A stretch of DNA of 64,000 bases from an uncultured bacterium (GTDB lineage: Bacteria > Armatimonadota > HRBIN16), in assembly GCA_964650005.1 (NCBI GenBank), contig CAZYPZ010000023.1, positions 6,288 to 70,287 of the forward strand, read 5' to 3'. Below, one piece after another: positions 33,751-64,000 of the stretch. Position 1 is the first letter of the stretch, and every line of letters begins with the position of its first letter. The position numbers and the translations under genes are program-made. Under the pieces are notes generated by a model that saw nothing but the letters and a program-made list of their open reading frames with translations, was not told where the DNA came from and made no database searches.

Positions 33751-34401
33751 ATGGACGACGCACATTATATGCCTGAAGAGCCGAAGTCACCGCCGCCGAG
33801 TACTCGGCCCAGCGCGCGCGAACGCATACTGCGGGCGGCTGAAGCCTTATTTGCCGAGCGTGGATTCGATCAGTCATCTGTCGGCGAAATCGCCTATCGC
33901 GCCGGCGTAAACCGTGCGCTGTTGTACTACTATTTTCGTCAAAAGGACGATATCTACCGGCAGATCATGATCGAGGGAATGAGCCTGTTGAGGCAGGTCA
34001 CCAGCAATGTGCTGGAGCCGGGAATGACTGTGCGCGAGGCGGTGGGGGCGTTCATCGACGCGTATCTGGATATGGCAAAAACACACCCCGGGCTGGTGCG
34101 GATTGTTTACAGAGAGATCGTAGGCGCCCAACATCAGGACAGCGAGTCCCGTGCATTTGTCGACGAGTTTGTCGGCACCATCTGGATGTTGCGCGCGGTG
34201 CTGGAGCGCGGTATTCAGGCGGGCGAGCTGGCGCCACATGACCCGATCAAGGGGGTCATCAGCCTGTTCGGATTGACCAATGTGTTCATAACCGTCGATT
34301 ATCTCGACGGCGCGAGCTTCTCCCGAGAAGAGGTACGCGACCACATCCTGCGTGTGTTTTTCGAGGGACTGGGAACGGCCAGGGACGGAGCCGGTTCATG
34401 A
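33751..34401 (+). CDS. TetR/AcrR family transcriptional regulator
   Basis: HTH region RERILRAAEALFAERGFDQSSVGEIAYRAGVNRALLYYYF. Confidence 0.85.
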   Translation: MDDAHYMPEEPKSPPPSTRPSARERILRAAEALFAERGFDQSSVGEIAYRAGVNRALLYYYFRQKDDIYRQIMIEGMSLLRQVTSNVLEPGMTVREAVGAFIDAYLDMAKTHPGLVRIVYREIVGAQHQDSESRAFVDEFVGTIWMLRAVLERGIQAGELAPHDPIKGVISLFGLTNVFITVDYLDGASFSREEVRDHILRVFFEGLGTARDGAGS

Positions 34402-35420
34402 AACCGGATTACACCCAGTTCGTACGCGTGCTGCAGCGAACCCGGCGTCCTGATCACCTGCCTCTTTATGAGCACATCGCCAGTCCCGGGTTCATCGCGC
34501 GGGCCACTCAGTCGGATTTCGATCGGCGGCCGCAAGACGAGACCTATTGGCGCATCTATGTTCAGTTTTGGATGGACATGGGGTTCGATGTCGTTCCGCT
34601 GGAGGTTCCCTTGAACCTGCCTGCGCCGGCTGCGCAGGCGGGAGAAAGCTTCGAGAGCGAGGCGTTTGTGGTCATTCGCAGCGCTGACGACTTCGACACG
34701 TATCCCTGGCCCGAGGAAGACAACGCACTGGATTTCAGCGTATTCGAGCGCGTGGCGAACCTGTTGCCCGATGGCGCCAAACTGGTTGCCGGGGTGTGCA
34801 TGGGCCCCTACGAACACGTCTCGCGCATGCTGGGAACGATCGGTTTGTCCTACTTGCTGGCGGATGATCCCGATCTGGTTCAAGCCATGTTTGACCGTAT
34901 CGGTCGGTTGATTGTCTCGGTGGATAAACGCCTGGCGGCGATGGATGCGGTGTGCGCCGTGCGGCAGGGCGACGATCTGGGCTTCAAGACCGCCACGTTC
35001 CTGTCGCCGGCTCAGTTGCGGCGATATGTGTTTCCGATATACGCTCGGCAGGTGCAGGCGGCCCACGATCAGGGTAAACCCTTCGTACTGCATTCCTGTG
35101 GTCAACTCAGCGCGGTGTATGACGATCTGATCGACTTCTGCAAGATCGATGCCAAGCACTCGTTCGAAGACCAGATCATGCCGCCTTATGAGTTCAAACG
35201 GCTATACGGCGACCGGGTGACGGCGTTGGGTGGTCTGGATGTGGACACGATCTGCCGTTCGGATGAGGTCCATCTGAGGGCTTATACGCGCCGAATGATC
35301 GAAGCGTGCTTTGCCGATGGCTGGTGGGCGCTGGGCACCGGCAACTCGTTGACAGATTACATGCCGGTTGAAAACTATCGGATTGTGCTTGACGAAGCGC
35401 AACGCGTGCTGAACGGTTAA
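34398..35420 (+). CDS. Uroporphyrinogen decarboxylase (URO-D) family protein, MtaA/CmuA-like methyltransferase candidate
   Basis: LSPAQLRRYVFPIY and HSCG motifs typical of URO-D-fold proteins. Overlaps the tetR stop (ATGA). Confidence 0.6.
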   Translation: MKPDYTQFVRVLQRTRRPDHLPLYEHIASPGFIARATQSDFDRRPQDETYWRIYVQFWMDMGFDVVPLEVPLNLPAPAAQAGESFESEAFVVIRSADDFDTYPWPEEDNALDFSVFERVANLLPDGAKLVAGVCMGPYEHVSRMLGTIGLSYLLADDPDLVQAMFDRIGRLIVSVDKRLAAMDAVCAVRQGDDLGFKTATFLSPAQLRRYVFPIYARQVQAAHDQGKPFVLHSCGQLSAVYDDLIDFCKIDAKHSFEDQIMPPYEFKRLYGDRVTALGGLDVDTICRSDEVHLRAYTRRMIEACFADGWWALGTGNSLTDYMPVENYRIVLDEAQRVLNG

Positions 35421-51737: not shown

Positions 51738-51998
51738 ATGGCGCCCCGACAATGTCCCGGTCAGGATAGCCGATATTGGAAACCTGAAGACATCTACGAC
51801 GTGCCCTGTACCAACTGCGGCTTACCGATGGAGTTCTTCAAGACCGACCTGCGGCGAGCGTGCCCGCAGTGTGGCTCGCTCAATGTAAACCCCCGTAACG
51901 ATATGTCCTGCGCAGCGTGGTGCAAGTCGGCACCGGAGTGTCTGGCCCAACTGGGTATCGTGCTGACAGACGGTTCGGATCAGCAGTCATCCGGATAA
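51738..51998 (+). CDS. Small Cys-rich zinc-ribbon protein (86 aa)
   Basis: AGGAG RBS 6 nt upstream. CTNCG...CPQCG plus a C-terminal CAAWCKSAPEC cluster. Lies immediately upstream of the CODH/ACS cluster. Confidence 0.5.
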   Translation: MAPRQCPGQDSRYWKPEDIYDVPCTNCGLPMEFFKTDLRRACPQCGSLNVNPRNDMSCAAWCKSAPECLAQLGIVLTDGSDQQSSG

Positions 51999-52217: not shown

Positions 52218-53027
52218 ATGTCGCTCAAACTGGCTATCTCAGGCAAAGGCGGAGTCGGAAAGTCGACCGTCTGTGGAGTGCTCGCCCGCCTGTATGCAGC
52301 ATCCGGTCGACCTGTTCTGGCTATCGATGCCGACCCGGACGCTAACCTCGCCTCCGCGTTGGGCATGCCCGCAGAATTGCAGGCTTCCGTCCGCACCATC
52401 TCCGAACAGCGCCGCTTGGTCGAAGAGCGCACGGGCGCCAAGGCCAACCAGTACGGCCAAGTGTTCACCATCAACCCCGATGTGTCCGGTATTGCCGAAC
52501 AGTACGCAGTACGCCATGCCGGTGTGGATTTGCTGGTGCTGGGGGGGATCCCCAGTGCGGGCGGAGGGTGCAACTGTCCGGAGAGCGTGCTGCTGAAGTC
52601 GCTGGTACGGGAACTGGTACTGAAGCGCGATGACGTGGTGCTGCTGGACATGGAGGCGGGCATCGAGCACTTGGGGCGCGGCACGGCGATGGGAGTGGAT
52701 TTAATGCTGGCGGTTGTGGAACCCGGGCGACGCAGCGTGGATACCGCCGCACGCGTCCATCAGCTGTCTGCAGGCATCGGTATCCGTCAATTTGCCATTG
52801 TCGTCAACAAGGCCACCGATCCGGATGCTGACCGTCAATGGGTGTCAGACATGTATGGTGACGCGCCTATCTTGGGTGTCATACCGTATGATGCCCGCAT
52901 CGGAGAGGCTGACCGTACCGGCCGGTCGGTGGTGGATCTCAACGAACCGCCCCTGATCCAGCCATTTCAACAGATCTTGGAAGTCATCACCGAGCGTTAC
53001 GAGCGACACGATAGGAAACATTCATAA
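52218..53027 (+). CDS. cooC: CODH/ACS nickel-insertion accessory ATPase CooC (MinD family)
   Basis: LAISGKGGVGKST deviant Walker A and a CxC motif GGCNCPE; 269 aa. Confidence 0.85.
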   Translation: MSLKLAISGKGGVGKSTVCGVLARLYAASGRPVLAIDADPDANLASALGMPAELQASVRTISEQRRLVEERTGAKANQYGQVFTINPDVSGIAEQYAVRHAGVDLLVLGGIPSAGGGCNCPESVLLKSLVRELVLKRDDVVLLDMEAGIEHLGRGTAMGVDLMLAVVEPGRRSVDTAARVHQLSAGIGIRQFAIVVNKATDPDADRQWVSDMYGDAPILGVIPYDARIGEADRTGRSVVDLNEPPLIQPFQQILEVITERYERHDRKHS

Positions 53028-53052
53028 TATCGCCAATTCTGGAGGAGTGATC

Positions 53053-54102
53053 ATGGGTTTTGCACCGAAATGTCTGGCGACAGCCATAGGAAGTCTGCCC
53101 CACGCCGCTGCGGAGGATGCTGTCAATGTCGTTCTGGCCAGCATACCGTCTGCACCGATCTGGCCGCAGCTTCCAGCCAATGGAATGAACGAGCAGATGG
53201 AGATCCAGTATTCCGAAGGCATGCCTCGCGTGGTGATCGATCGTGAGAAGGAGCGCATGTACTTCGATACCTCCGGCGACTATTCCATGGATCTGGCTAC
53301 GTTCTATGAGAACTACATTGTGGAGAATTTCGATTATTTTCAGATCACGCCGGAGTTTTCCAAGGGTATCTACGCGCTCGAGTCGGTTTTACAGGCACAG
53401 GGCGGCAAAAGGCCGTTCGTGAAAGTGCAGACCACGGGACCGATGAGTTTCGGGTTGACCATCGTCGATGAAAACAAACGGGCGATCTTCTATAACCCGG
53501 AGTTTATCGATGTGGTGGTCAAGGCCCTGGCGATGAAGTGCCGCTGGCAGATCCGCAAGTTCCAGCCATATGCTGAACAGATCATCTGTTTCATCGACGA
53601 ACCGATCCTTTCCGCATTTGGCTCATCCACGTACGTCAGCGTCAGCCGTGATGATGTGGTGGCGAAGTTGAACGAAGTGGTCGAGGCGGTGCATGCCGAC
53701 GGCGCTCTGGCCGGAGTGCACTGCTGCGGCAATACCGAGTGGTCCATCTTGATAGACGCCGGCGTCGACATCGTCAACTTCGATGCGTTTGATTTCGGCG
53801 ATACCATCGCGTTGTACCCACAGGCGGTGAAGGCGCATCTGGAGGCCGGAAAGGTGCTGGCGTGGGGTGTGGTGCCCACCAACAGCGCCAAGATCCAGCA
53901 GCAGACTGTGGAGACGTTGATCGCCAAGTTCGATGAAGGCGTGGACAATCTGGCCAAGGCTGCCGGTATCAGCCGAGATCTGATCATCCAGCAGGCGATC
54001 ATCACGCCGTCCTGTGGTACAGGCTCGCTGCCGGTGCCCGATGCGGAACGGGTGTTCGATCTGCTGGGCCAGTTGAGTGCTGTTTTGCAGCAGAGACTGT
54101 AG
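53053..54102 (+). CDS. Single-domain MetE-like methyltransferase (core-MetE-like; cobalamin-independent methionine synthase catalytic-domain family)
   Basis: Strong GGAGGAG RBS. ICFIDEP (IQIDE-like) motif, VHCCG (H-x-C zinc ligands) and ITPSCGTG (SPDCGL-like Cys ligand). About 350 aa with no N-terminal MetE barrel. Confidence 0.6.
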   Translation: MGFAPKCLATAIGSLPHAAAEDAVNVVLASIPSAPIWPQLPANGMNEQMEIQYSEGMPRVVIDREKERMYFDTSGDYSMDLATFYENYIVENFDYFQITPEFSKGIYALESVLQAQGGKRPFVKVQTTGPMSFGLTIVDENKRAIFYNPEFIDVVVKALAMKCRWQIRKFQPYAEQIICFIDEPILSAFGSSTYVSVSRDDVVAKLNEVVEAVHADGALAGVHCCGNTEWSILIDAGVDIVNFDAFDFGDTIALYPQAVKAHLEAGKVLAWGVVPTNSAKIQQQTVETLIAKFDEGVDNLAKAAGISRDLIIQQAIITPSCGTGSLPVPDAERVFDLLGQLSAVLQQRL

Positions 54103-54115
54103 CCGAGGCGGATCG

Positions 54116-54907
54116 GTGCCGAAGTACACCATCGCATTGACGGGCAAAGGCGGAGTCGGCAAGACCACGCTGGCCTCACTGATCATCCGATGGCTGGTGT
54201 CTCAGGGAGAGACCCCTGTGCTGGCTGTCGATGCCGACTCCAATGCCAATCTGGACGAAGCGTTGGGCGTATCGTACACGGCCACCGTGGGAGGCATACG
54301 TGAGGACGCCCTGCGCATCGCCAAGGAGTTGACGGGTATCTCCAAACAGGAGTTTTTGGACCTGCGTGTTCAGGAGGCTCTGGTGGAATGCGAAGGGTTC
54401 GACCTGATCGTCATGGGGCGACCGGAAGGTCCCGGCTGTTACTGCTTCGCGAACAATGTGCTCCGTGACGTTATCCGCAAACTGTCGGATAACTACCGGC
54501 ACGTGGTGGTGGATAGCGAAGCGGGGCTGGAACACCTTTCGCGGCGGACGCTTCTGAAAGTGGATCTGCTGTGCATCGTGTCTGACTGCAGCGTGCGGGG
54601 TGTGCGAACCGCTGCGCGCATCGCACAATTGACCGATGACATGGGCACTCCGGTGGCCCATAAAGGGCTGATCATCAACCGTGCACCCGGCGGGGAGCTC
54701 ACGCAGCGGTTGCGCGATGAAGCGCAGGCAACGGGGCTCCCCCTGCTGGCCGTCATCCCGATGGATGACCAGATTGCTGCGATCGATGCCGATGGCAGCG
54801 CCATCAGTCAACTGGCCGGCGACTCACCGGCCAGTGAAACGCTGGGCGACATGCTCAGACGGTTTATGGAGTCCGCGATGCAGCCGGTCGAACCGGCGCA
54901 TCCGTAG
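54116..54907 (+). CDS. cooC: Second CooC/AcsF-type nickel-insertion ATPase
   Basis: IALTGKGGVGKTT Walker A and a CxC motif GPGCYC. GTG start; an alternative GTG at 54077 is possible. Confidence 0.8.
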   Translation: MPKYTIALTGKGGVGKTTLASLIIRWLVSQGETPVLAVDADSNANLDEALGVSYTATVGGIREDALRIAKELTGISKQEFLDLRVQEALVECEGFDLIVMGRPEGPGCYCFANNVLRDVIRKLSDNYRHVVVDSEAGLEHLSRRTLLKVDLLCIVSDCSVRGVRTAARIAQLTDDMGTPVAHKGLIINRAPGGELTQRLRDEAQATGLPLLAVIPMDDQIAAIDADGSAISQLAGDSPASETLGDMLRRFMESAMQPVEPAHP

Positions 54908-54973
54908 TACCGAAACACCCGCTGGCGCACCGTTCATGACGCCAGGCGACGACACATAAGGAGCCGACACGTA

Positions 54974-56926
54974 ATGCCGAACGAAACCAACAGACCGAAC
55001 CAGGCGTCTGTATCGCACGACCCCGCGATCAATACCCTGGTGGAGTTCGCGCAGGGAGAGGGAATCAATACCGTCTGGGATCGCTACCGGACACAGCAGC
55101 CGCAGTGCAAGTTCGGCGCCACCGGGGTGTGCTGTCGTCTGTGTCACATGGGCCCCTGTAGGATAACCCCCAAAGCGCCCAAAGGTATCTGCGGAGCGGA
55201 TGCCGACACCATTACCGCCCGGAATCTGCTGCGCGAGATCGCCGCTGGCACCGCCGCCCACTCCGACCATGGTCGCATGCTGGTGCGCACCCTGATGGGC
55301 GTGGCGCGTGGAGAGGGCGGGCCTTACAAGATCACCGATGCGCGCCGGTTGCGTGAGATGGCCGCGTTTTTCGATATCGAGACGGAAGGCCGTGACGACC
55401 TGGCGATTGCAGGCGACTTGGCCCAGTTCTGCATGGATCAGTTCGCGTGGTCGGAAGAGCCGAACAAAACGCTCAAACTGGCCCCGGAAAAACGGCAGGA
55501 GTTGTGGCGCAAGATGGAACTGGAGCCGCACGGCGTCGACTCCGCGGTAGTCGAGTTGATGCATCGCACGCACATGGGCGTGGATCACGACTATCGGCAC
55601 CTGATCAGCGGCGGGCTGCGTTGCAGTCTGGCGGACGGCTGGGTTGGCTCGATGATCGCCACCATGGTGTCCGATATCCTGTTCGGAACACCCAAACCGA
55701 TCCGCAGCCGGGTCAACCTGGGTGTGCTGGCCGAAGACAAGGTCAACATCATCGTCCATGGCCATGAACCGACGCTCTCCGAGATGCTGGCCACGGCTTC
55801 GATCGATGAGGAACTGCTGGCGTATGCACGCTCGAAGGGCGCCGCGGGCATCAATATCGCGGGTATCTGCTGTACCGCCAATGAGGTGCTGATGCGCCAT
55901 GGATTGCCCGTTGCAGGCAACTTCCTGCAGCAGGAACTGGCGATTATCACCGGCGCGGTCGAAATGATGATCGTGGATGTGCAGTGTGTGATGCCCTCTC
56001 TGCCCGAAGTGATGAAATGCTTCCACACCAAGCTGATCAGCACATCCGAAATCGCCCAGACGTTCAACGCCGAACAGATAACATTCGATGTGCAGGAGGG
56101 ATATGCCCATGCCTGCCGGCTGATCCGCATGGCGATCGACAACTTTGAGAACCGGGAAAGCAGCCGTGTGCGGATCCCGAACCAGTCGATGGAGCTGATC
56201 GCCGGATTCTCGAACGAGACCATCTTTCATATGTTGGGTGGCCGGTTCCGCAGCACGTTCCGCCCCTTGAACGATGCAATCATCGACGGACGCATCCGGG
56301 GGGTGGTGGGCATCGTGGGATGCAGCAACCCCAAAGTCCGCACGGATGACTCACACATCGCTTTGACTCGCGAACTGATCAAGAACAACGTGCTGGTGCT
56401 GCAGACCGGCTGCTCGGCGATCGCCTGCGCCAAAGAGGGGCTGCTGGTGCCGGAGGCGGCCCTGGAATGCGCCGGTGAGACGTTGCGGGAGGTATGCGAA
56501 GCGGTGGGTATTCCCCCGGTGCTGCACATGGGATCGTGTGTCGACAACAGCCGCATCCTGATGGCCGCCACCAACGTCATACGCGAAGGCGGACTGGGTG
56601 AGGATCTGTCAGATCTGCCGGCCGCAGGCGCCGCACCGGAATGGATGAGCGAGAAGGCGGTGGCGATTGGTCATTACTTCGTGGCCAGCGGTCTGTATGT
56701 CGTTTTGGGCCATCCGCTGTACGTGGAAGGCAGCGAAAACGTGACTCGGTTGCTGTGCGAGGAGATGACGGACATCACCGGCGGTCGTTTCGAGTGGGAG
56801 CCGGATCCGGTGGCCGCCGCGGGAAAGATCTTGGCGCACATCGAGGCAAAACGCGATGCGCTGGGTATTAACACCCGCAAGGAACGCAAGCTATATGACA
56901 TGAAGGAGCGGAGGGAACTGGCATGA
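54974..56926 (+). CDS. cooS: Anaerobic carbon-monoxide dehydrogenase catalytic subunit (CooS/AcsA)
   Basis: N-terminal CKFGATGVCCRLCHMGPCRI B/D-cluster motif and 650 aa. The TGA overlaps the acsB ATG in an ATGA arrangement. Confidence 0.9.
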   Translation: MPNETNRPNQASVSHDPAINTLVEFAQGEGINTVWDRYRTQQPQCKFGATGVCCRLCHMGPCRITPKAPKGICGADADTITARNLLREIAAGTAAHSDHGRMLVRTLMGVARGEGGPYKITDARRLREMAAFFDIETEGRDDLAIAGDLAQFCMDQFAWSEEPNKTLKLAPEKRQELWRKMELEPHGVDSAVVELMHRTHMGVDHDYRHLISGGLRCSLADGWVGSMIATMVSDILFGTPKPIRSRVNLGVLAEDKVNIIVHGHEPTLSEMLATASIDEELLAYARSKGAAGINIAGICCTANEVLMRHGLPVAGNFLQQELAIITGAVEMMIVDVQCVMPSLPEVMKCFHTKLISTSEIAQTFNAEQITFDVQEGYAHACRLIRMAIDNFENRESSRVRIPNQSMELIAGFSNETIFHMLGGRFRSTFRPLNDAIIDGRIRGVVGIVGCSNPKVRTDDSHIALTRELIKNNVLVLQTGCSAIACAKEGLLVPEAALECAGETLREVCEAVGIPPVLHMGSCVDNSRILMAATNVIREGGLGEDLSDLPAAGAAPEWMSEKAVAIGHYFVASGLYVVLGHPLYVEGSENVTRLLCEEMTDITGGRFEWEPDPVAAAGKILAHIEAKRDALGINTRKERKLYDMKERRELA

Positions 56927-59900
56927 GTAAAGTCATCGCTGCATCGGCGATCCGCGGAGCGCATCGGGTGGTCGCCGACGCCGAGGCCATGGTGTCAAAG
57001 GCGTTGGAAGCGCATGGCGAAGACTGCCCGGTCGGTTTCCCCGATACCGCATACGCGTTGCCGGTCATCAACTCCCTGCTGGGTATCGAGGTCAAAAAAC
57101 TGGGCGATATGCGCCCGGTGCTGGACGAGTGCCGCAGTCTGCTCACCACCGCGCCTGAAGACGATGTCTGGCTGCCGTACTTGGGTGCGACACTGGACGC
57201 CGGCATGGCCACATTGTTCGCCTTCGAGCTGATCGAAGCGATCAAGTATCTGGATGGGCCGCATCCCGTGAACGGCATATGGCTCGGCGCCGCCAGCGAT
57301 GTGATCATCCGGGAGCGCGGCATCGAGTTCGTGGACGGCTCCGCACCGGGATTCGCGGCGATTGTCGGCGCAGCTCCGGACAACGAGACCGCGGTGAAAA
57401 TCGCCCGGGAACTGCAGGAAAAGAACCTGTATGTGTTCATCGCCGGGGAGACCAATGGCGTATCGTTTGCCGAGCAGCTGGCTGAAGCCGGAGTGGAACT
57501 GGGCTGGGACACCCGGCTGGTGCCGTTCGGGAAAGACATCTCCGCGGTGATTTATGCGCTGGGGTTCGCCAACCGGGCGGCGCTGTCATTCGGCGGCGTC
57601 AAGCCGGGCGATTACTCACGCAATTTGAAATACAACAAGAACCGTATCTTCGCGTTCGTAATCGCGTTAGGCGAAGTCGACGAGGTGAAGTACGCCGCAG
57701 CCGCGGGTGCGATCTCGTACGGCTTTCCGACCATAGCAGATACGGCGATACCGCAGATTTTGCCGACGGGCATCTGTACTTACGAACATGTGGTCTCTTC
57801 GGTGCCGCATGACCGCATTGTGGAGAAGGCTCTCGAGGTCCGCGGTTGCAAGATCAAGATCACTAAGGTGCCCATTCCCGTGTCGTATGGCGCGGCGTTC
57901 GAAGGGGAACGGATTCGTAAAGAACAGACCTACGTGGAGTTCGGCGGGAACCGTACGCATGCGTTCGAGTATGTGTGCACGCGGGAAATATCCGAAGTGG
58001 AAGATGGCAAGATCACGGTCATCGGTCCCGAGATCGACGATGTGGAGGTCGGTTCATCACTGCCGTTGGCCATCTGGGTGGAAGTGGCCGGGCGCAAAAT
58101 GCAGCCCGATTTTGAGCCGATCCTGGAGCGCCAGATACATCACCTGATCAACGGCGCCGAGGGCGTATGGCACATGGGGCAGCGCGATATCATCTGGGTG
58201 CGCATCAGTAAAGGCGCGCAGGCCAAGGGGTTCAAGATACGTCACTTGGGTGAGATCATACGCGCCAAACTGTTGAGTGACTATCCCGCGATTGTCGACA
58301 AGGTGCAAGTGACGCTGTTCACAGACGCCGCCGAGGTGGAAACACGGCTGGCCGAAGCGCGGCGTGTGTACCGAGAGCGCAACCTGCGCGTGGAGTCTCT
58401 CACCGACGACAGTGTCGATACCTTTTACTCCTGTCTGCTGTGCCAAAGCTTTGCACCGAACCACGTATGCGTCATCACACCTGAACGACTGGGTTTATGT
58501 GGCGCGTATAACTGGCTGGACGGAAAAGCCGCGTACGAGATCGATCCGACAGGACCTAACCAGCCGCTGGTCAAGGGTGAATGCCTCGATCCGATCCGGG
58601 GGCAGTGGAAGAACATCAACGATTATGTCTATGTCAACTCCAAACAGACCATCAAGGCGTTCAATGCCTATTCGATGCTGAAGGATCCCATGACCAGCTG
58701 CGGCTGTTTCGAGGCGATTGTCGCGATGCTGCCGGAGTGCAACGGTGTGGCGATCGTCAACCGGGAGTACGGCGGCGACACGCCCATGGGCATGAAGTTT
58801 TCCACGCTGGCAGGGATTACGGGCGGCGGTCAGCAGACCCCCGGATTTATCGGTGTCGGCAAAGCGTATATCTCCAGCCGTAAGTTCATCTCGGCGGAGG
58901 GGGGCCACAAGCGGATCGTCTGGATGCCGGCGGAGTTGAAGCAGACGCTTCGGGAAGAGCTGATGCACATCGGTGAGCAGCTGGGGATACCCAACTACAT
59001 CGACATGATTGCGGATGAGCAGAACGCCGGCACCGATACGGCCTCGGTCATCGCGCACATGCAGAAGATGGGACATCCCGCTCTGGAGATGTGGGATATC
59101 ACGCAGTCGTCGCCGGAGCTGGCGGCATTTGACGCTCAGCGGGGTGTCGCCTTGGAAGAGTCCGCAGCTGCCAGCGCTCAGCCGGCGCCCGCGCCGAAGC
59201 CTGCTCAAGCGTCCGTACCGGAACCTGTCGCGGAAACGCCTGCGCCGACTGCGGCAGTCTCCTCCGAGCCGACTTCAGCCGTCAGTGAGTCTGCGCCGGC
59301 AAGTGTTGTCACCAACGCTCCTAGCGCTCCGGTCGCTCCGTTGCAGACACAGGGCATCGACTATGTGATGTCGGTACTGGACCGGATGCGCAGTCAGGGA
59401 TTGCCGACTGCCGGTCCGGATGCGTCCCCCGAACAGCAGCTGGCGGCGTTACAGGCATCCACCGCACTGAACCTGTTGACCGCGGGCGCGAACATGCTGT
59501 TGATGTACAGCGGATTGCTGGGCGCCATACCCGCGACGCCCGTAACCCCTGTGTCCACCCCTGCCTCTGCGCCGCCGGAACCCGCCGCGCCGGCCGAGCC
59601 TGTGACGCAGTCAGTGCAGGCTCCAGCTCCTCCGGCAGTCGAGGCGCCGCCTCCGGTACGTCCGGTGACTTCTGCGCTGATCGTCACGCCGACCACGGTC
59701 CCCACCTACAGTGACGCTTCCGCCATGGCGGTGCGCACGGTGACATTGGGAGGGAGCGGCACGCGCACCTCTGCGGTCACCATCGGCGGTGCCGAGGTAA
59801 TGCCGTTCCGCCACTATGAGGGGAACGCGGGACATCGCCCGGTGATCGCCATGGAGGTGTTCGACCAGCTGCCCAGAAACTATCCGGACAGCCTGAGAGA

Positions 59901-60651
59901 CGCGTATGGACAGCTGTTGGACGATCCCGCGGCCATGGCCAAGTACTGCGTGGAGCAGCTCAAAGCGGAAGTCATCAGCGTGCGGCTGGAAAGCGCTCAT
60001 CCGGACCAAGGGGATGCATCGCCTGCGGCCTGTGTGGACTTCATCCGCCAGATCATGCAGGCGGTGGGGGTGCCCATTATCGTCACCGGCCCGGCGCATT
60101 ACGAGAAATGCAACGCGGTGATGAAGGAGGTGGCCAGCCAGTTCGCCGGTGAGAACCTGTTGCTGAACTGGGTGGAGACCGACAACTACAAAACAATTGT
60201 CGCCGCCGCCATGGCGTATAATCACTGCGTCGTCACACAGACTCCGATCGACGTGAATATGGCCAAGCAGCTCAACATCCTGTGTACCAACATGGGGCTG
60301 GCGCCGGACAAGATCGTGATCGATGCGTTGACCGGGGCCTTGGGATATGGTCTGGAGTATACCTACTCGGTGATGGAGCGCATCCGTTCTTCTGTGTTCA
60401 CCGGTGATGCGATGCTGGCCATGCCAATGCTGGTGACGCCGGGGTATGAGGTGGCGAAGATCAAGGAGAGCAAAGCGCCGGCAAGTGCTTTCCCGCTGTG
60501 GGGGCCTGAGTCCGAGCGCGGCGCACTGCTGGAAATCGCCACTGCAATGAGTCTGCTGAATGCCGGTGCGGATCTGCTGGTGATGTACCACCCGACGGCG
60601 GCGCGTACGGTGGGACAGAAGATCGCCGATATGACCCGGGTAGCTGGGTGA
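56923..60651 (+). CDS. acsB: Acetyl-CoA synthase beta subunit (AcsB/CdhC) fused via an Ala/Pro-rich linker to the corrinoid Fe-S protein small subunit (AcsD/CdhD)
   Basis: GFPDTAYALPVI (matches AcsB GYPDTAYYLPVI). A-cluster ligands CLLCQSF...C...C and SCGCFE. Residues roughly 745-905 are Ala/Pro-rich. The C-terminal roughly 330 aa match AcsD (LGGSGTRTSAVTIGGAEVMPFRHYEG, AGENLLLNWVETDNYK, SVMERIR). Confidence 0.85.
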   Translation: MSKVIAASAIRGAHRVVADAEAMVSKALEAHGEDCPVGFPDTAYALPVINSLLGIEVKKLGDMRPVLDECRSLLTTAPEDDVWLPYLGATLDAGMATLFAFELIEAIKYLDGPHPVNGIWLGAASDVIIRERGIEFVDGSAPGFAAIVGAAPDNETAVKIARELQEKNLYVFIAGETNGVSFAEQLAEAGVELGWDTRLVPFGKDISAVIYALGFANRAALSFGGVKPGDYSRNLKYNKNRIFAFVIALGEVDEVKYAAAAGAISYGFPTIADTAIPQILPTGICTYEHVVSSVPHDRIVEKALEVRGCKIKITKVPIPVSYGAAFEGERIRKEQTYVEFGGNRTHAFEYVCTREISEVEDGKITVIGPEIDDVEVGSSLPLAIWVEVAGRKMQPDFEPILERQIHHLINGAEGVWHMGQRDIIWVRISKGAQAKGFKIRHLGEIIRAKLLSDYPAIVDKVQVTLFTDAAEVETRLAEARRVYRERNLRVESLTDDSVDTFYSCLLCQSFAPNHVCVITPERLGLCGAYNWLDGKAAYEIDPTGPNQPLVKGECLDPIRGQWKNINDYVYVNSKQTIKAFNAYSMLKDPMTSCGCFEAIVAMLPECNGVAIVNREYGGDTPMGMKFSTLAGITGGGQQTPGFIGVGKAYISSRKFISAEGGHKRIVWMPAELKQTLREELMHIGEQLGIPNYIDMIADEQNAGTDTASVIAHMQKMGHPALEMWDITQSSPELAAFDAQRGVALEESAAASAQPAPAPKPAQASVPEPVAETPAPTAAVSSEPTSAVSESAPASVVTNAPSAPVAPLQTQGIDYVMSVLDRMRSQGLPTAGPDASPEQQLAALQASTALNLLTAGANMLLMYSGLLGAIPATPVTPVSTPASAPPEPAAPAEPVTQSVQAPAPPAVEAPPPVRPVTSALIVTPTTVPTYSDASAMAVRTVTLGGSGTRTSAVTIGGAEVMPFRHYEGNAGHRPVIAMEVFDQLPRNYPDSLRDAYGQLLDDPAAMAKYCVEQLKAEVISVRLESAHPDQGDASPAACVDFIRQIMQAVGVPIIVTGPAHYEKCNAVMKEVASQFAGENLLLNWVETDNYKTIVAAAMAYNHCVVTQTPIDVNMAKQLNILCTNMGLAPDKIVIDALTGALGYGLEYTYSVMERIRSSVFTGDAMLAMPMLVTPGYEVAKIKESKAPASAFPLWGPESERGALLEIATAMSLLNAGADLLVMYHPTAARTVGQKIADMTRVAG

Positions 60652-60664
60652 AGGGAGAATAACG

Positions 60665-62011
60665 ATGGCTCTTTCCGGACTGGATATCTTCAAACTGCTG
60701 CCCAAGACCAACTGCGGTGAGTGCGGGGTGCCCACGTGCATGGCGTTCGCCATGAAACTTGCCTCCAAGAACGCGGAACTGGCCGCCTGTCCATACGCCT
60801 CCGAGGAAGCAATCGCCAAGATAGGCGCCGCCAGCAAGCCGCCGATCCGGTTGGTGAAAATCGGGCCGGCCGAGAGCGAAGTCGCGGTGGGAAACGAAAC
60901 CGTGATGTTCCGCCATGAGAAGACGTTCGTTCACCAGACCGCGTTCGCTGTCGCGTTCTCGGACGCGCAATCGAGCACGGAGTTGGCCCATTTGACCGCA
61001 GACTTGCGCGAGTACTGCCTCGAACGTGTCGGCGAGCAGCTTCGGCTGGATCTGGCGCTGGTGGACAACACCACCGGCGATGTGGAGCCGTTCGTGGCCG
61101 CGGTCAAAGCGGTCGCCGGCGGTACGGGACGCGGTGTGATCTTGAAGAGCGGCAATCTGGACGCCCTGGATGCGGCGTTGAATGTCCTGCCGGGGCAGCG
61201 TCCGTTGATCCATGCCGCCACTTCTGAAAACGCAGACGCCGTTGCGGCGCTGGCGTTGAAACATAAAGCGCCGGTTGTGGCAACGGCGACCGGCTTGGAT
61301 GAACTGGCGGCCTTGACCCAGCGCCTTCAGGGCTTGGGCGTAACGGACATCGTACTCGAGATCCCGTCGGATAATCCGGCCGCAGTGCTGCAGTTCAACA
61401 CGATCATGCGCAAAGCCGCTCTCAAGGGGCCGTATGAACCGATGGGGTATCCGATACTCAACATGGTCGTCGGTCAAGATATGGCATCGATGGTTGCCGA
61501 TGCGTCCACATTCATCTGCAAATACGCGTCGATACTGGTGATCGATTCGCTGGCCTATCAGGCGCTGCTTCCGTTGATGATGTTGCGGCAGAACATCTAT
61601 ACCGATCCGCAGAAGCCGATTCAGGTGGAGCCGAAAGTGTATGCGATCGGCGAAGCGCATGAAAACTCCCCGGTATTCGTGACCACAAACTTCTCGTTGA
61701 CCTATTTCATCGTCAGCGGGGAACTGGAAAACTCCGGCGTGCCGGCACACCTGGCGGTGGTGGAGTGCGAAGGCATGAGTGTGTTGACTGCCTGGGCGGC
61801 GGGTAAGTTCTCGGGAGAGAAGATCGCCGCTTTCATCAAGTCCTCCGGTCTGGAGAATCAGGTGAAGACACGCAAACTGGTCATACCGGGCTACGTGTCG
61901 CAGATCAGCGGTGAGCTGGAAGATGCGTTGCCGGGCTGGGAGGTAGTCGTCGGGCCGCAGGAGGCGTCGGACATCACTGCGTTTATGAAAATCTACGCGG
62001 CGGCAGGCTGA
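60665..62011 (+). CDS. acsC: Corrinoid iron-sulfur protein large subunit (AcsC/CdhE)
   Basis: N-terminal LPKTNCGECGVPTCMAFAMKLA [4Fe-4S] motif, a TIM barrel and a C-terminal B12-binding domain; 448 aa. Confidence 0.85.
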   Translation: MALSGLDIFKLLPKTNCGECGVPTCMAFAMKLASKNAELAACPYASEEAIAKIGAASKPPIRLVKIGPAESEVAVGNETVMFRHEKTFVHQTAFAVAFSDAQSSTELAHLTADLREYCLERVGEQLRLDLALVDNTTGDVEPFVAAVKAVAGGTGRGVILKSGNLDALDAALNVLPGQRPLIHAATSENADAVAALALKHKAPVVATATGLDELAALTQRLQGLGVTDIVLEIPSDNPAAVLQFNTIMRKAALKGPYEPMGYPILNMVVGQDMASMVADASTFICKYASILVIDSLAYQALLPLMMLRQNIYTDPQKPIQVEPKVYAIGEAHENSPVFVTTNFSLTYFIVSGELENSGVPAHLAVVECEGMSVLTAWAAGKFSGEKIAAFIKSSGLENQVKTRKLVIPGYVSQISGELEDALPGWEVVVGPQEASDITAFMKIYAAAG

Positions 62012-62069
62012 CGGAATGCCTGCCGGTACATACAAAACATCCGATATGAGCCGGGGGCGCAGATAGCAG

Positions 62070-63989
62070 ATGCCCGTCGTACGGTTTCTGCCTGCCGATA
62101 TCGCCGTTGAGGTCGAGCCGGGTGTGATGATCCATGAAGTGGCCATCAAGGCGGGACTCGAGGATCTTCACCTGCCATGCGGAGGCAAGGGCACATGCGG
62201 TCGGTGTCAGGTCGAGGTGGTTCAGGGCGACTTTCAACCGAGCAGCACGCGGTTGGAGTCCGCCTTGGCCACCCGGGGGCTGGTACTGGCCTGCCGCACG
62301 CGGGTCAACGGAGATATGACGATCCGATTGCGCCAGCGTCAGGAAACCGGCATCAAAGCGATGGGGGACAGTCAGTTCCTGATCAGCGACGAGTACCTGC
62401 CGGATCCCAACTCCCTGACACCGTTGTACACCGCCCATCAGGTCACCGTTCCTCCTGCGTCTGTCGAGGAGCATTACAGCGACTGGCAGCGCTTGGTGCG
62501 CGCCTTGACCCGTGATACCGGCGCGATCACCGTCACCGCCGATGCCGCCGTGCTCCGCGGGCTCGCTGAAACGGTGCGTGCCGAGGATGGACGTGTAACC
62601 GCGATCGTTCAGGAAGACGATGGAATGCTGCAGGTGCTTGACGTTTGGCCAGGACATCGGCCGACGCGGGCTTTAGGGCTGGCCATCGATGTGGGGACGA
62701 CCACTGTGGCGGTGCAACTGGTCAATATGCTGGATGGATCGGTTATAGCCAGCCGAACGGCGTACAATACACAGATCAGCCGTGGTGCGGATATCATCAC
62801 GCGTATTGACTACGCCAGAACGCCGGAACGGCTTCGGGAACTCACCAATATGGTGCTGGCGACCATCAACAGCCTGGTCGAAGAGCTGGCGGATGAGTCA
62901 CAGATTGAAGCCGACAACATTCATGCGGCGTTTATTGCGGGTAACACCACGATGATCCATCTGTTGCTGGGGTTGCCGCCGCGTTATATCCGCGAGGCCC
63001 CGTACGTCCCCACCGTAAATGCGGTTCCCGCGCTGCTGGCTGTCGAAGTCGGGCTTGCCATCCATCCGAAGGCGGTGGTCGCGTTCGCTCCGGGAGTAGG
63101 CAGCTATGTCGGCGGAGATATCACCGCCGGTTTGCTCTGTACGGAGTTTCTGTCGAACAGCGAAGAGGTGTTCCTGTTTCTCGATATCGGCACGAATGGG
63201 GAGATCGTGTTGGGTAACGCCGACTGGATGGTCACGTGCGCCTGCTCGGCGGGACCGGCGTTCGAAGGGTCGGGCATCAAATGCGGGATGCGCGCTTCGG
63301 AAGGAGCCGTCGAGTATGTGTCGATCACCCCGGGTGGCGAAACCGTCCGTTGCGATGTAATCGGTGACGGCAAGCCGGCCGGTATATGCGGCTCCGGGCT
63401 GATCTCACTGCTGGGCGAGCTGCTGCTCAGCGGTGTGATCGACCAATCGGGGCGTTTCAACACCGACCTGCCTACAGGTCGGTGGGTAGAGTGCGGTGGT
63501 ACGACCGCCTATGTGATTGCCCGGGCCGAGGAGACGCTGTCCGGTGAGAACCTGGTGATTACCGAGGCGGACATCGAAAACCTTATGCGTACCAAGGCGG
63601 CCATTTACGCAGCCTGCGCGTTGATCTTGAACAACGTGGGGCTTGAATGGAGCGCCATATCCCGGATATTCATCGCCGGCGGTTTTGGACGGTATATCGA
63701 CATCCAGGACGCCATACTGATCGGGCTGCTTCCCGATCTGCCGGCTGACCGCTTCCGCTACATTGGCAACTCTGCGCTGACCGGCGCCTATATCGCGTTG
63801 CTGTCGCGCGAACATCGGCAGCGGTTGATGCAGATCGCCTCGGCGATGACGTATATAGACTTGAGCAGCGATCATCGGTATATGGATAGTTATCTCGGGG
63901 CGCTGTTTTTGCCCCACACCGATCTGTCACAGTTTCCATCGGTCAGCGGCCGGTTGGCCGCGCTGAAAGAAGCCGTGTCAGGCGCCTGA
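62070..63989 (+). CDS. Reductive activator of corrinoid protein (RACo-like; N-terminal [2Fe-2S] ferredoxin domain plus ASKHA ATPase)
   Basis: LHLPCGGKGTCGRCQV plant-type ferredoxin Cys motif, followed by a roughly 500-aa actin-like ATPase; 639 aa. Confidence 0.75.
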   Translation: MPVVRFLPADIAVEVEPGVMIHEVAIKAGLEDLHLPCGGKGTCGRCQVEVVQGDFQPSSTRLESALATRGLVLACRTRVNGDMTIRLRQRQETGIKAMGDSQFLISDEYLPDPNSLTPLYTAHQVTVPPASVEEHYSDWQRLVRALTRDTGAITVTADAAVLRGLAETVRAEDGRVTAIVQEDDGMLQVLDVWPGHRPTRALGLAIDVGTTTVAVQLVNMLDGSVIASRTAYNTQISRGADIITRIDYARTPERLRELTNMVLATINSLVEELADESQIEADNIHAAFIAGNTTMIHLLLGLPPRYIREAPYVPTVNAVPALLAVEVGLAIHPKAVVAFAPGVGSYVGGDITAGLLCTEFLSNSEEVFLFLDIGTNGEIVLGNADWMVTCACSAGPAFEGSGIKCGMRASEGAVEYVSITPGGETVRCDVIGDGKPAGICGSGLISLLGELLLSGVIDQSGRFNTDLPTGRWVECGGTTAYVIARAEETLSGENLVITEADIENLMRTKAAIYAACALILNNVGLEWSAISRIFIAGGFGRYIDIQDAILIGLLPDLPADRFRYIGNSALTGAYIALLSREHRQRLMQIASAMTYIDLSSDHRYMDSYLGALFLPHTDLSQFPSVSGRLAALKEAVSGA

Positions 63990-64000
63990 CTCCTGCCGGA

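Follow-up and report, generated by a model that had tools for sequence, protein, structure and literature searches.

Which methyl transfer is served by a MetE-like gene that lies between two cooC paralogues, ahead of the genes for CODH, ACS, CFeSP and RACo, when no gene for AcsE accompanies them? This question is raised by one end of the 64-kb window analysed here (the whole stretch of DNA, 64,000 nucleotides, probably belonging to an Armatimonadota MAG), and in the following the MetE-like gene and its product are called X.

Gene content and organization of the module

The gene order given in a preliminary description of this DNA, i.e. cooC, MetE-like X, cooC, cooS, acsB::acsD, acsC and RACo, holds throughout, as do the coordinates (Table 1). 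The translational coupling claimed there for several pairs was somewhat overstated: the ATGA overlap of cooS and acsB is real, but at the remaining junctions the genes do not overlap and are separated by short stretches of 13-66 nt. X possesses a GGAGGA ribosome-binding site 8 nt upstream of its ATG. CooC1, a CbiA/ParA-type ATPase, is kept beside X in related loci, and CooC2 (33% identity to CooC1) may have an AcsF-like role. The fusion of acsB and acsD was found in 47 related loci.

The cluster is headed by a small Cys-rich ORF, for which Pfam and NCBIfam searches gave no match. It also adjoins the module in the loci L001 (67% identity), L017, L023, L028, L034, L125 and L168 and might encode an accessory protein or a regulator. 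A scan for promoters and terminators performed no better than on shuffled sequence, and no Rfam family was detected in the window.

Table 1. Positions and assignment of the features of the CODH/ACS module.
Feature	Position in the window	Strand	Assignment
Small Cys-rich ORF	51738..51998	+	86 aa
cooC1	52218..53027	+	CooC-type Ni-insertion ATPase, paralogue 1; PF01656 CbiA E 7e-18; P-loop and CxC motif
X	53053..54102	+	349 aa single-barrel Zn-type MetE-like (MesB/core-MetE-like) methyltransferase
cooC2	54116 (or 54077)..54907	+	CooC-type Ni-insertion ATPase, paralogue 2; PF01656 E 7.6e-16; start ambiguous, GTG 54116 (GAGG site 7 nt upstream) or GTG 54077 (overlaps X)
cooS	54974..56926	+	CooS/AcsA Ni-CODH catalytic subunit; TIGR01702 696.8 bits (cutoff 478); PF03063 E 4.5e-172
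acsB::acsD	56923..60651	+	1242 aa fusion; CODH_A_N, CdhC, ACS_CODH_B_C and CdhD domains
acsB::acsD, ACS part	~56923-59100		NF040764 1062 bits, residues 10-726
acsB::acsD, linker	~59101-59718		Ala/Pro-rich, ~residues 727-932
acsB::acsD, AcsD part	~59719-60651		CFeSP small subunit; NF003376 (delta subunit) 362 bits, residues 933-1238
acsC	60665..62011	+	corrinoid-binding large CFeSP subunit; PRK04165 549 bits; PF04060 FeS and PF03599
RACo/AcsV	62070..63989	+	ATP-dependent reductive corrinoid activator; Fer2, RACo_linker, Raco_middle and RACo_C_ter all present; NF040756 618 bits

Fold and active site of X

X had been described as a protein that carries the zinc-ligand motifs of the MetE catalytic barrel and lacks the N-terminal barrel, and both points were borne out. 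X contains the motifs FIDEP (180-184), HCC (223-225) and SCG (320-322), which do not vary among close homologues, and the 349 residues form one barrel, the second barrel of full-length MetE (Meth_synt_1, which helps to bind folate polyglutamate) being absent. The Pfam comparison proposed at the same time assigned X to neither Meth_synt_2 nor URO-D, even at E <= 10; X matched no Pfam family, PF01208 (MtaA/URO-D) and the pterin-binding domain PF00809 included, and at this threshold neither X nor three homologues gave a hit to PF01717 (Meth_synt_2). Among 57 diverse members of the X family, five showed weak matches to PF01717 (best E 3e-4) and two matched PF01208 weakly. Sequence searches of the PDB with X and with the family profile returned nothing.

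The structure model of X is a (beta/alpha)8 barrel, with MetE catalytic barrels as nearest structures and MtaA and URO-D ranking behind them. On this ranking, an enzyme of the MtaA/URO-D type was rejected. With the methylcobamide:thiol methyltransferases MtaA, MtbA and MtsA of the URO-D family, X nevertheless has the superfamily in common and would share zinc activation of a thiol and a corrinoid protein as partner.

The alignment of the zinc ligands and of the IDEP aspartate with MetE was confirmed by hhalign. H223, C225, D244 and C321 of X correspond to His641, Cys643, Glu665 and Cys726, with Asp replacing Glu665, and are kept in 131-133 of 134 representatives; D182 aligns to the homocysteine-binding Asp599. 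S14 aligns to Ser433 only within a very weak HMM segment, and the equivalent of Glu484, either Q39 or E47, was assigned by eye only. Compared to the catalytic barrel of MetE, X exhibits only 10-17% identity besides the unmatched Pfam model, its third zinc ligand is Asp and not Glu, and its last Cys is located at +98 instead of +85. The putative homocysteine and zinc residues are common to the whole family, including stand-alone presumed methionine synthases.

As judged from published residues and descriptions, and not from the DET0516/cbdbA481 sequence itself, X resembles the MesB/core-MetE enzyme of D. mccartyi (DET0516 = cbdbA481). Both are single barrels of ~340-350 aa without the folate-binding barrel, and in the His/Cys/Asp/Cys zinc site of both, Asp stands where MetE has Glu665 and the spacing is near-identical (+2, +21 and +98 in X, compared to H215, C217, D236 and C312 published for the D. 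mccartyi core-MetE). Position 126 of X (Q or H) followed by G129 corresponds to the published core-MetE motif HxxG. AcsC and AcsD are encoded in the genomes of both, in the case of X in the same operon. Unlike MesB, X forms a tight subclade (at least about 52% identity across phyla) embedded in a CODH/ACS operon, where a homocysteine-domain protein of the MetH type goes with it; CODH, absent from D. mccartyi, is part of the module, and the missing Meth_synt_2 match of X was counted as a further difference. Price 2021 sets the limit for MesB at a phmmer score of 130 bits or more against DET0516. Core-MetE uses methylcobalamin as donor and not methyl-THF, and CFeSP has been proposed as its methyl source (PMC7005905); in some methanogens mesB clusters with acsCD (PMC7857596). 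The idea that core-MetE draws on CFeSP, including the clustering of its gene with acsCD, has thus already been published.

More distant relatives of X (33-47% identity) are mostly encoded by stand-alone genes of a housekeeping type. Some of them carry the NCBI name 'methionine synthase', and one shares an operon with the homocysteine-biosynthesis genes HcyBio and NIL-ferredoxin. A cluster look-up of ten distant representatives yielded metagenomic names only.

Conservation and spread of the module

Of the 66 loci that could be evaluated, from more than 15 phyla, 59 have the same CODH/ACS genes beside X (53-79% identical). The link of X to CODH/ACS, CFeSP and RACo, to which the preliminary description had attached its functional proposal, is therefore conserved and not incidental. 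The divergence of X tracks that of AcsB (rho 0.73), CooS (0.65) and RACo (0.66), and X is the second most conserved protein of the module, ahead of the CFeSP subunits. That X might be an unrelated biosynthetic gene placed by chance within an ordinary Wood-Ljungdahl operon is contradicted by the shared neighbourhood and by this divergence in step, and we regard it as hardly credible.

The hosts belong to Armatimonadota, Acidobacteriota, Planctomycetota, Verrucomicrobiota, Victivallales, Bacteroidales, Spirochaetes, Christensenellaceae, Oscillospiraceae, Aminicenantes and others; fermenters of peat, sediments, digesters and guts predominate. Complete genomes that bear the module include OW818647.1, OY787460.1 and CP070825.1. 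The region is best explained as a copy of a CODH/ACS module that stands on its own and has spread horizontally.

Absence of AcsE

None of the genes acsE, metF, folD, fhs, metH and metE was found anywhere in the 64-kb window. A phmmer search with the folate domain of E. coli MetH detected no AcsE/PF00809-like ORF in the window or within +/-10 kb in 87 loci, and no PF00809-like gene follows the module downstream in L090 or L175. AcsE, already noted as missing, is accordingly adjacent neither here nor in any related locus. The canonical acs operon of Moorella and Acetobacterium (acsA, acsB, acsC, acsD, acsE, cooC, acsF and acsV) has CODH, ACS, both CFeSP subunits, two CooC-type maturases and RACo/AcsV in common with the module. 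The module differs in lacking acsE and any methyl-branch gene, in the fusion of acsB and acsD, in the addition of two Zn thiol methyltransferases and, often, in a Ni/Co ECF transporter with NikR nearby. Its AcsD part fits NCBIfam NF003376 and not WLP_AcsD (255 bits compared to a cutoff of 430).

The lack of AcsE would be accounted for if X were a non-orthologous replacement that transfers the methyl group from methyl-tetrahydrofolate to CFeSP, as the preliminary description had considered in a related form, with a non-folate methyl donor or acceptor. The catalytic barrel of full-length MetE contributes to folate binding, which lends this some support. X, however, shows no similarity to pterin-binding barrels, lacks the N-terminal barrel and keeps a zinc site for thiol activation, for which methyl transfer from folate would have no use, together with the homocysteine residues of its family. 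Since, in addition, methyl-THF is not used by the core-MetE that has been characterised (PMC7005905), a folate-dependent replacement of AcsE by X is very improbable, and an AcsE-like folate enzyme was rejected on account of the zinc-thiol site and the missing pterin barrel.

Proposed methyl transfer to homocysteine

As the module has no folate methyltransferase, a direct exchange of methyl groups between its corrinoid protein and homocysteine and methionine is probable. X is predicted to transfer methyl groups between a methyl-corrinoid (CFeSP) and homocysteine. The explanation we prefer, with moderate confidence, is that of a MesB/core-MetE-like methyltransferase acting between corrinoid protein and homocysteine on methyl groups placed on CFeSP by ACS. 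Gene content, fold, conservation of the active-site residues and of the synteny, and the lack of AcsE nearby are established, whereas what X acts on, its pairing with CFeSP and which way the methyl group moves are inferred. The module comprises two CooC-type Ni insertases, CooS, the fusion of ACS with the small CFeSP subunit, AcsC, RACo and the two Zn-type thiol methyltransferases. ACS would generate the methyl group on CFeSP, most plausibly by cleavage of acetyl-CoA since AcsE is absent, and CooS would oxidise the CO. In X, the zinc bound by H223, C225, D244 and C321 would activate the thiol of homocysteine, positioned by S14, Q39 and/or E47, and D182. The thiolate would then take the methyl group from CH3-Co(III)-CFeSP, yielding methionine and Co(I), and RACo would rescue cobalt oxidised to Co(II).

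In an Rfam search, no SAM, T-box or cobalamin riboswitch was found upstream of eight Bacillota copies of the module. The missing Met/SAM riboswitch is unusual for methionine-biosynthesis genes of Bacillota and counts against the preferred explanation. Across 14 module loci, the only Rfam matches were PYLIS elements in the MttB genes of L006.

A second methyltransferase

The MetH-type homocysteine-domain protein (PF02574), here called SMT, is as constant a member of the module as X. In close relatives its gene follows RACo, i.e. just past the end of the window, and it is apparently present on the window's own contig. SMT shows 31% identity to residues 16-328 of E. coli MetH and has kept all three Zn cysteines. 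Its constancy also counts against the preferred explanation, as one of the two methyltransferases may do something else. The proposal that X taps the pathway for methionine, made with SMT out of view, therefore stands as one reading among others.

Alternatively, SMT could be the methionine synthase of the module, performing a MetH-like half-reaction on CFeSP or on a small B12 protein, with X serving another thiol or another corrinoid partner. The similarity to MetH and the kept cysteines fit this role, two enzymes for the same reaction would be redundant in one conserved operon, and in the variant L124 the order SMT, B12-binding protein, RamA-like activator resembles a split MetH. Split MetH systems reportedly consist of a stand-alone PF02574 homocysteine domain, a B12 protein and a RamA-like activator. 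The module likewise contains a stand-alone homocysteine domain with the MetH zinc cysteines, a RACo/RamA-type activator and, in some variants, a small B12-binding protein, but it lacks the pterin-binding (PF00809) component, and in most copies the corrinoid carrier would be CFeSP. Against this division of labour, the putative homocysteine and zinc residues of X are those found family-wide, also in the stand-alone presumed methionine synthases, and no neighbouring gene points to an alternative thiol for X. We consider it unlikely.

Direction of methyl flow

Several copies of the module adjoin methylotrophy genes, namely those for MttB and a betaine-binding protein, small B12-binding proteins, RamA-like activators and a URO-D-type methyltransferase, and these neighbours hint at methyl input rather than output. 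X and/or SMT might then demethylate thiomethyl or sulfonium compounds such as methionine, S-methylmethionine, methanethiol, DMS or methylmercaptopropionate and pass the methyl groups to Co(I)-CFeSP, standing in for AcsE with a donor other than folate, and ACS would carbonylate these groups with CO2-derived CO to acetyl-CoA. For fermenters, as most hosts are, this would constitute an electron sink and a source of ATP free of folate and of the methyl branch. MtsA shows that enzymes of the MtaA/MtbA/MtsA type can run both ways. Methyl loading would be in accordance with the lack of AcsE in or near any copy, with the presence of two methyltransferases as in MT1/MT2 corrinoid systems, and with the Bacillota copies devoid of a Met/SAM riboswitch. 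It is opposed by the energetics known from MetH and Mtr, where moving the methyl group of a thioether to Co(I) is strongly unfavourable, so that a sulfonium donor or a pull by ACS would be needed. Furthermore, X keeps the residues for the amino-acid part of homocysteine, which disfavours small thiols such as methanethiol, and its stand-alone relatives look biosynthetic. A Christensenellaceae cell bearing the module (L072) transcribes CODH and ACS, and methyl-branch genes were not found in its genome, which is 21% complete (PMC10266427); this, too, agrees with loading. Taken together, we regard methyl loading as rather unlikely.

Implications

The lack of AcsE and of any methyl-branch gene means that the module may serve something other than reductive acetogenesis or autotrophy, either supplying the methyl group of methionine from acetyl-CoA or using methyl donors free of folate. 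In the literature searched, including studies on the genomic context of CODH, we found no description of an AcsE-less module with two methyltransferases. We tentatively propose a folate-independent form of CODH/ACS, spread by horizontal gene transfer through more than 15 phyla including many non-acetogens, in which AcsE is replaced by two zinc methyltransferases of the homocysteine type, one a MesB-like barrel and the other a homocysteine domain as in MetH, and the methyl group of acetyl-CoA is exchanged with the methionine/thiomethyl pool and not with methyl-tetrahydrofolate.

The module provides bacterial gene-neighbourhood support for the proposal that core methionine synthases draw methyl groups from CFeSP and, with ~8-9 genes, a compact system for reconstituting it. 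It also raises the question why two different homocysteine-type methyltransferases accompany one corrinoid protein. In metagenomes, acsB and other CODH/ACS genes are routinely taken as markers of reductive acetogenesis or autotrophy; if the proposed form of CODH/ACS exists, acsB in organisms bearing the module would not indicate Wood-Ljungdahl acetogenesis.

Organisation of the cluster

The gene order proposed for the CODH/ACS cluster in the preliminary description, with the single-barrel MetE-like protein X (349 aa) encoded between two cooC genes, was borne out on the + strand by an ORF listing and by Pfam and NCBIfam scans of the window (see table). The same description had assumed translational coupling of several gene pairs. 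This applies for cooS and acsB, where the cooS stop codon overlaps the acsB start in an ATGA sequence; at the remaining junctions the genes are separated by 13-66 nt, and most of these intervals contain Shine-Dalgarno-like sequences. The CooC paralogues are 33% identical to each other and both contain a CxC motif. In the AcsB::AcsD fusion, residues 10-726 correspond to NF040764 (1062 bits) and residues 933-1238 to NF003376 (362 bits), with about 200 residues of Ala/Pro-rich linker between them. The Cys-rich 86-aa ORF has homologues (40-67% identity) in or beside the module in seven related loci (L001, L017, L023, L028, L034, L125, L168) and is therefore probably a real accessory gene.

The remainder of the window contains unrelated genes, among them type IV pilus genes, mutS, ruvB, hisG and genes for a GH3 glycosidase and thioredoxin-like proteins. 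The nearest homologues of X and of the methyltransferase encoded downstream carry Armatimonadota MAG labels. Elsewhere in the window, a TetR regulator gene is translationally coupled to a gene for a 340-aa URO-D-family protein, followed by a glutathione peroxidase gene. With just 61.8 bits on PF01208, a low score for a genuine HemE, the URO-D-family protein is possibly an MtaA-like methyltransferase. A 661-aa protein with DUF6785 and DUF6784 domains is flanked by a 693-aa ORF without Pfam match and a TMEM260-like/TPR protein.

Features of the window and of related loci bearing X homologues (L numbers)
Feature	Sequence	Position	Strand	Remarks
Protein with DUF6785 and DUF6784	window	12861-14846	+	661 aa
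TetR regulator and URO-D-family protein	window	33751-35420	+	
Cys-rich 86-aa ORF	window	51738-51998	+	upstream of cooC1; no Pfam or NCBIfam match
cooC1	window	52218-53027	+	ORF listing, Pfam/NCBIfam scans
X	window	53053-54102	+	ORF listing, Pfam/NCBIfam scans
cooC2	window	54116 or 54077 to 54907	+	two candidate starts
cooS	window	54974-56926	+	TIGR01702, 697 bits
acsB::acsD fusion	window	56923-60651	+	1242 aa; NF040764 and NF003376
acsC	window	60665-62011	+	Pfam/NCBIfam scans
RACo/AcsV	window	62070-63989	+	Pfam/NCBIfam scans
SMT in relatives	L002; L175; L090	20126-21013; 10001-10885; 10001-10888		PF02574; beyond window end
Ni/Co ECF-type transporter (CbiM, PDGLE, CbiQ, ABC ATPase)	L090; L175	11297-15259; 16760-19524		adjoins or near module
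Called CooS	L002	11927-13219		430 aa
Conserved ORF of about 210 aa	L018; L019; L044, L059, L070, L074	20687-21064; 20576-21064; 		3' of RACo or flanking module
MttB-family genes upstream of module	L006	1-8100		NC10 MAG
B12-headed variant module	L068, L082; metagenome loci L124, L137, L148, L155, L160, L168, L173			

Relation of X to methionine synthases

No Pfam family matched X even at E <= 10, and PDB sequences were matched neither by X nor by its family profile. The sole NCBIfam match was PRK00957 'methionine synthase', and its 28 bits are far below the cutoff of 258. An AlphaFold2 model based on 43 homologues exhibits a (beta/alpha)8 barrel (pLDDT 81.8, pTM 0.86), and the best 12 Foldseek matches of this model are all MetE. 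By this ranking the proposed kinship with MetE holds, and a clustering of X with MtaA or URO-D was rejected.

In a profile alignment, H223, C225, D244 and C321 of X fall on the zinc ligands H641, C643, E665 and C726 of E. coli MetE, and D182 of the FIDEP motif falls on D599. Among 134 representatives with identities as low as 33%, 125-133 retain these putative zinc- and homocysteine-site residues. The family HMM at maximum sensitivity aligned with MetE in three weak, collinear segments, one of which sets IGS14 on IGS433; the assignments of S14 and Q39/E47 in X have weak alignments beneath them. The zinc ligands of the Dehalococcoides mccartyi core-MetE (MesB) are H215, C217, D236 and C312 (PMC7005905). 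Judged by these published positions, X shares this set of ligands, including Asp in third place, at almost equal spacing, and the 'HxxG' motif of core-MetE (PMC7005905) has its counterpart in Q/H126-x-x-G129 of X. It was also suggested that X might replace the missing AcsE with a non-folate methyl donor or acceptor. A folate-using replacement is unlikely, because X has a zinc-thiol site and core-MetE was reported not to use methyl-THF (PMC7005905).

Loops 44-48 (window about 53182-53196) and 187-195 (about 53611-53637) of X show pLDDT values below 50, yet carry the invariant residues E47, M49 and S187-Y194. Going by the model, both loops are candidates for mobile active-site lids.

Distribution and conservation of the module

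The X family comprises 2026 clusters (50% identity) at E < 1e-3. A scan with one genome per species revealed a tight X subclade of 80 loci at 53-79% identity, nearly all from MAGs. These belong to Acidobacteriota, NC10, Planctomycetota, Verrucomicrobiota, Lentisphaerae/Victivallales, Hydrogenedentota, Bacteroidales, Spirochaetes, Bacillota, Aminicenantes, Syntrophales, Sumerlaeota, Latescibacterota, Ignavibacteriae and others. Window proteins were compared with ORFs of the fetched loci called by a simple longest-ORF procedure. X adjoins CooC, CooS, AcsB(::AcsD), AcsC and RACo in 59 of the 66 evaluable loci, and the AcsB::AcsD fusion was seen in 47 loci. The divergence of X tracks that of AcsB (Spearman 0.73), RACo (0.66) and CooS (0.65). 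In conservation X ranks second among the module proteins, its median identity of 64% lying between those of AcsB (69%) and CooS (60%); AcsC has 51% and RACo 46%. Around the module no recurring gene families other than its own were found in the compared loci, so that it acts as a self-contained unit, and its distribution is patchy, as with transferred genes. The CooS called in L002 is shorter than that of the window (650 aa) and may be truncated or frameshifted.

Several X relatives at 33-47% identity carry the NCBI name 'methionine synthase'. Six relatives in this identity range were examined and lie in scattered housekeeping loci, one of them directly 3' of the homocysteine-biosynthesis genes HcyBio and NIL-ferredoxin. 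Among intermediate members detected in a metagenome scan, CODH/ACS genes are nearby in about 30 of 80 loci; among these are almost all loci with an identity of at least 52%, and a separate subclade at 39-47%. As both stand-alone relatives and ACS-linked subclades are seen, the family has the appearance of core methionine synthases, of which several subclades contain members that became linked to ACS operons.

The module includes a constant MetH-type partner, SMT, which in close relatives lies past the point where the window ends and hence was beyond the reach of the preliminary description. On the two long contigs most similar to the window, RACo is followed by a gene for this PF02574 protein (about 295 aa); in most other phyla the SMT gene directly precedes X. 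Of the 80 loci, 43 showed SMT, 34 of them immediately upstream of X; for the remaining 37, the sequence fetched stops at RACo or earlier. SMT shows 31% identity to residues 16-328 of E. coli MetH with the zinc cysteines C247, C310 and C311 all kept, and 79% identity to the homologue P0427. P0427 is encoded on an NCBI contig of 72,015 nt, equal in length to the contig that bears a 100% match to X; the genome of the window therefore almost certainly has SMT just past position 64000. The conserved ORF of about 210 aa found after RACo was judged by eye to be DUF3786-like.

Absence of AcsE and possible function of the module

Neither acsE, metF, folD, fhs, metH nor metE was found within the 64-kb window. 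In relatives, SMT is followed by NikR and a CbiMNQO-type Ni/Co transporter, or by unrelated genes; NikR precedes the transporter in L090. Downstream of SMT in L090 and L175 acsE, metF, folD and fhs were not found. In a phmmer search with the MetH folate domain, a single-sequence probe that a divergent AcsE could escape, neither the window nor any of 87 loci yielded a pterin-binding ORF; the same run picked up small B12-binding proteins in four loci. AcsE, MetH or MetE may be encoded elsewhere in the genomes.

On the evidence, X is best read as a predicted MesB-like zinc-dependent homocysteine methyltransferase having the corrinoid Fe-S protein (CFeSP) of the module as corrinoid partner. Since the module is without a folate methyltransferase, the methyl group on CFeSP would most simply originate from the cleavage of acetyl-CoA by ACS. 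X would move it from methyl-CFeSP to homocysteine, while CooS would oxidise the CO released, and repair of the corrinoid would fall to RACo. Energetically, the step from methyl-corrinoid to homocysteine is strongly downhill, favouring the methionine-forming direction. As a whole, this scheme would follow the logic of Dehalococcoides plus a CODH (PMC7005905; PMC7857596).

This reading is not secure in view of three observations. Two homocysteine-type enzymes, X and SMT, are conserved together in the module; no SAM or T-box riboswitch was found at eight Bacillota module copies; and several copies adjoin methylotrophy genes. In L006, two MttB-family genes, each with an Rfam PYLIS_3 match, lie directly upstream of the module beside a gene for a glycine-betaine-type binding protein (OpuAC). 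L009 has a URO-D-type methyltransferase, a B12 protein, DUF1638 and a RamA-like activator as neighbours. In the Aminicenantes-type variant a small B12-binding protein similar to the MetH B12 domain heads the operon; L124 has the order SMT, B12 protein, RamA-like activator. These observations are also consistent with two rival models: loading of CFeSP by thiomethyl or sulfonium donors for acetyl-CoA synthesis, or methionine synthesis by SMT, with a different thiol or partner for X.

AcsB and AcsD are unfused in the variants L068 and L082, with the second CooC between them. The MttB-family genes of L006 are accompanied by a 427-aa ORF that shares its cluster with an AraC-type regulator, judged by eye to be PocR/AraC-like.

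A core MetE tapping CFeSP has already been proposed (PMC7005905; PMC7857596), and the clustering of mesB with acsCD in methanogens has been published (PMC7857596). The tight X subclade inside an AcsE-less CODH/ACS operon, the fused AcsB::AcsD of the module and the constant partner SMT appear to be undescribed; full-text literature searches, papers on CODH genomic context included, yielded no description of the module. A Christensenellaceae single-cell genome, only 21% complete, transcribes CODH and ACS with no methyl-branch genes found, which was left unexplained (PMC10266427); this genome is the source of locus L072. The module bears on the reading of acsB in metagenomes, and its compactness makes it suitable for tests of CFeSP-dependent methionine synthesis.
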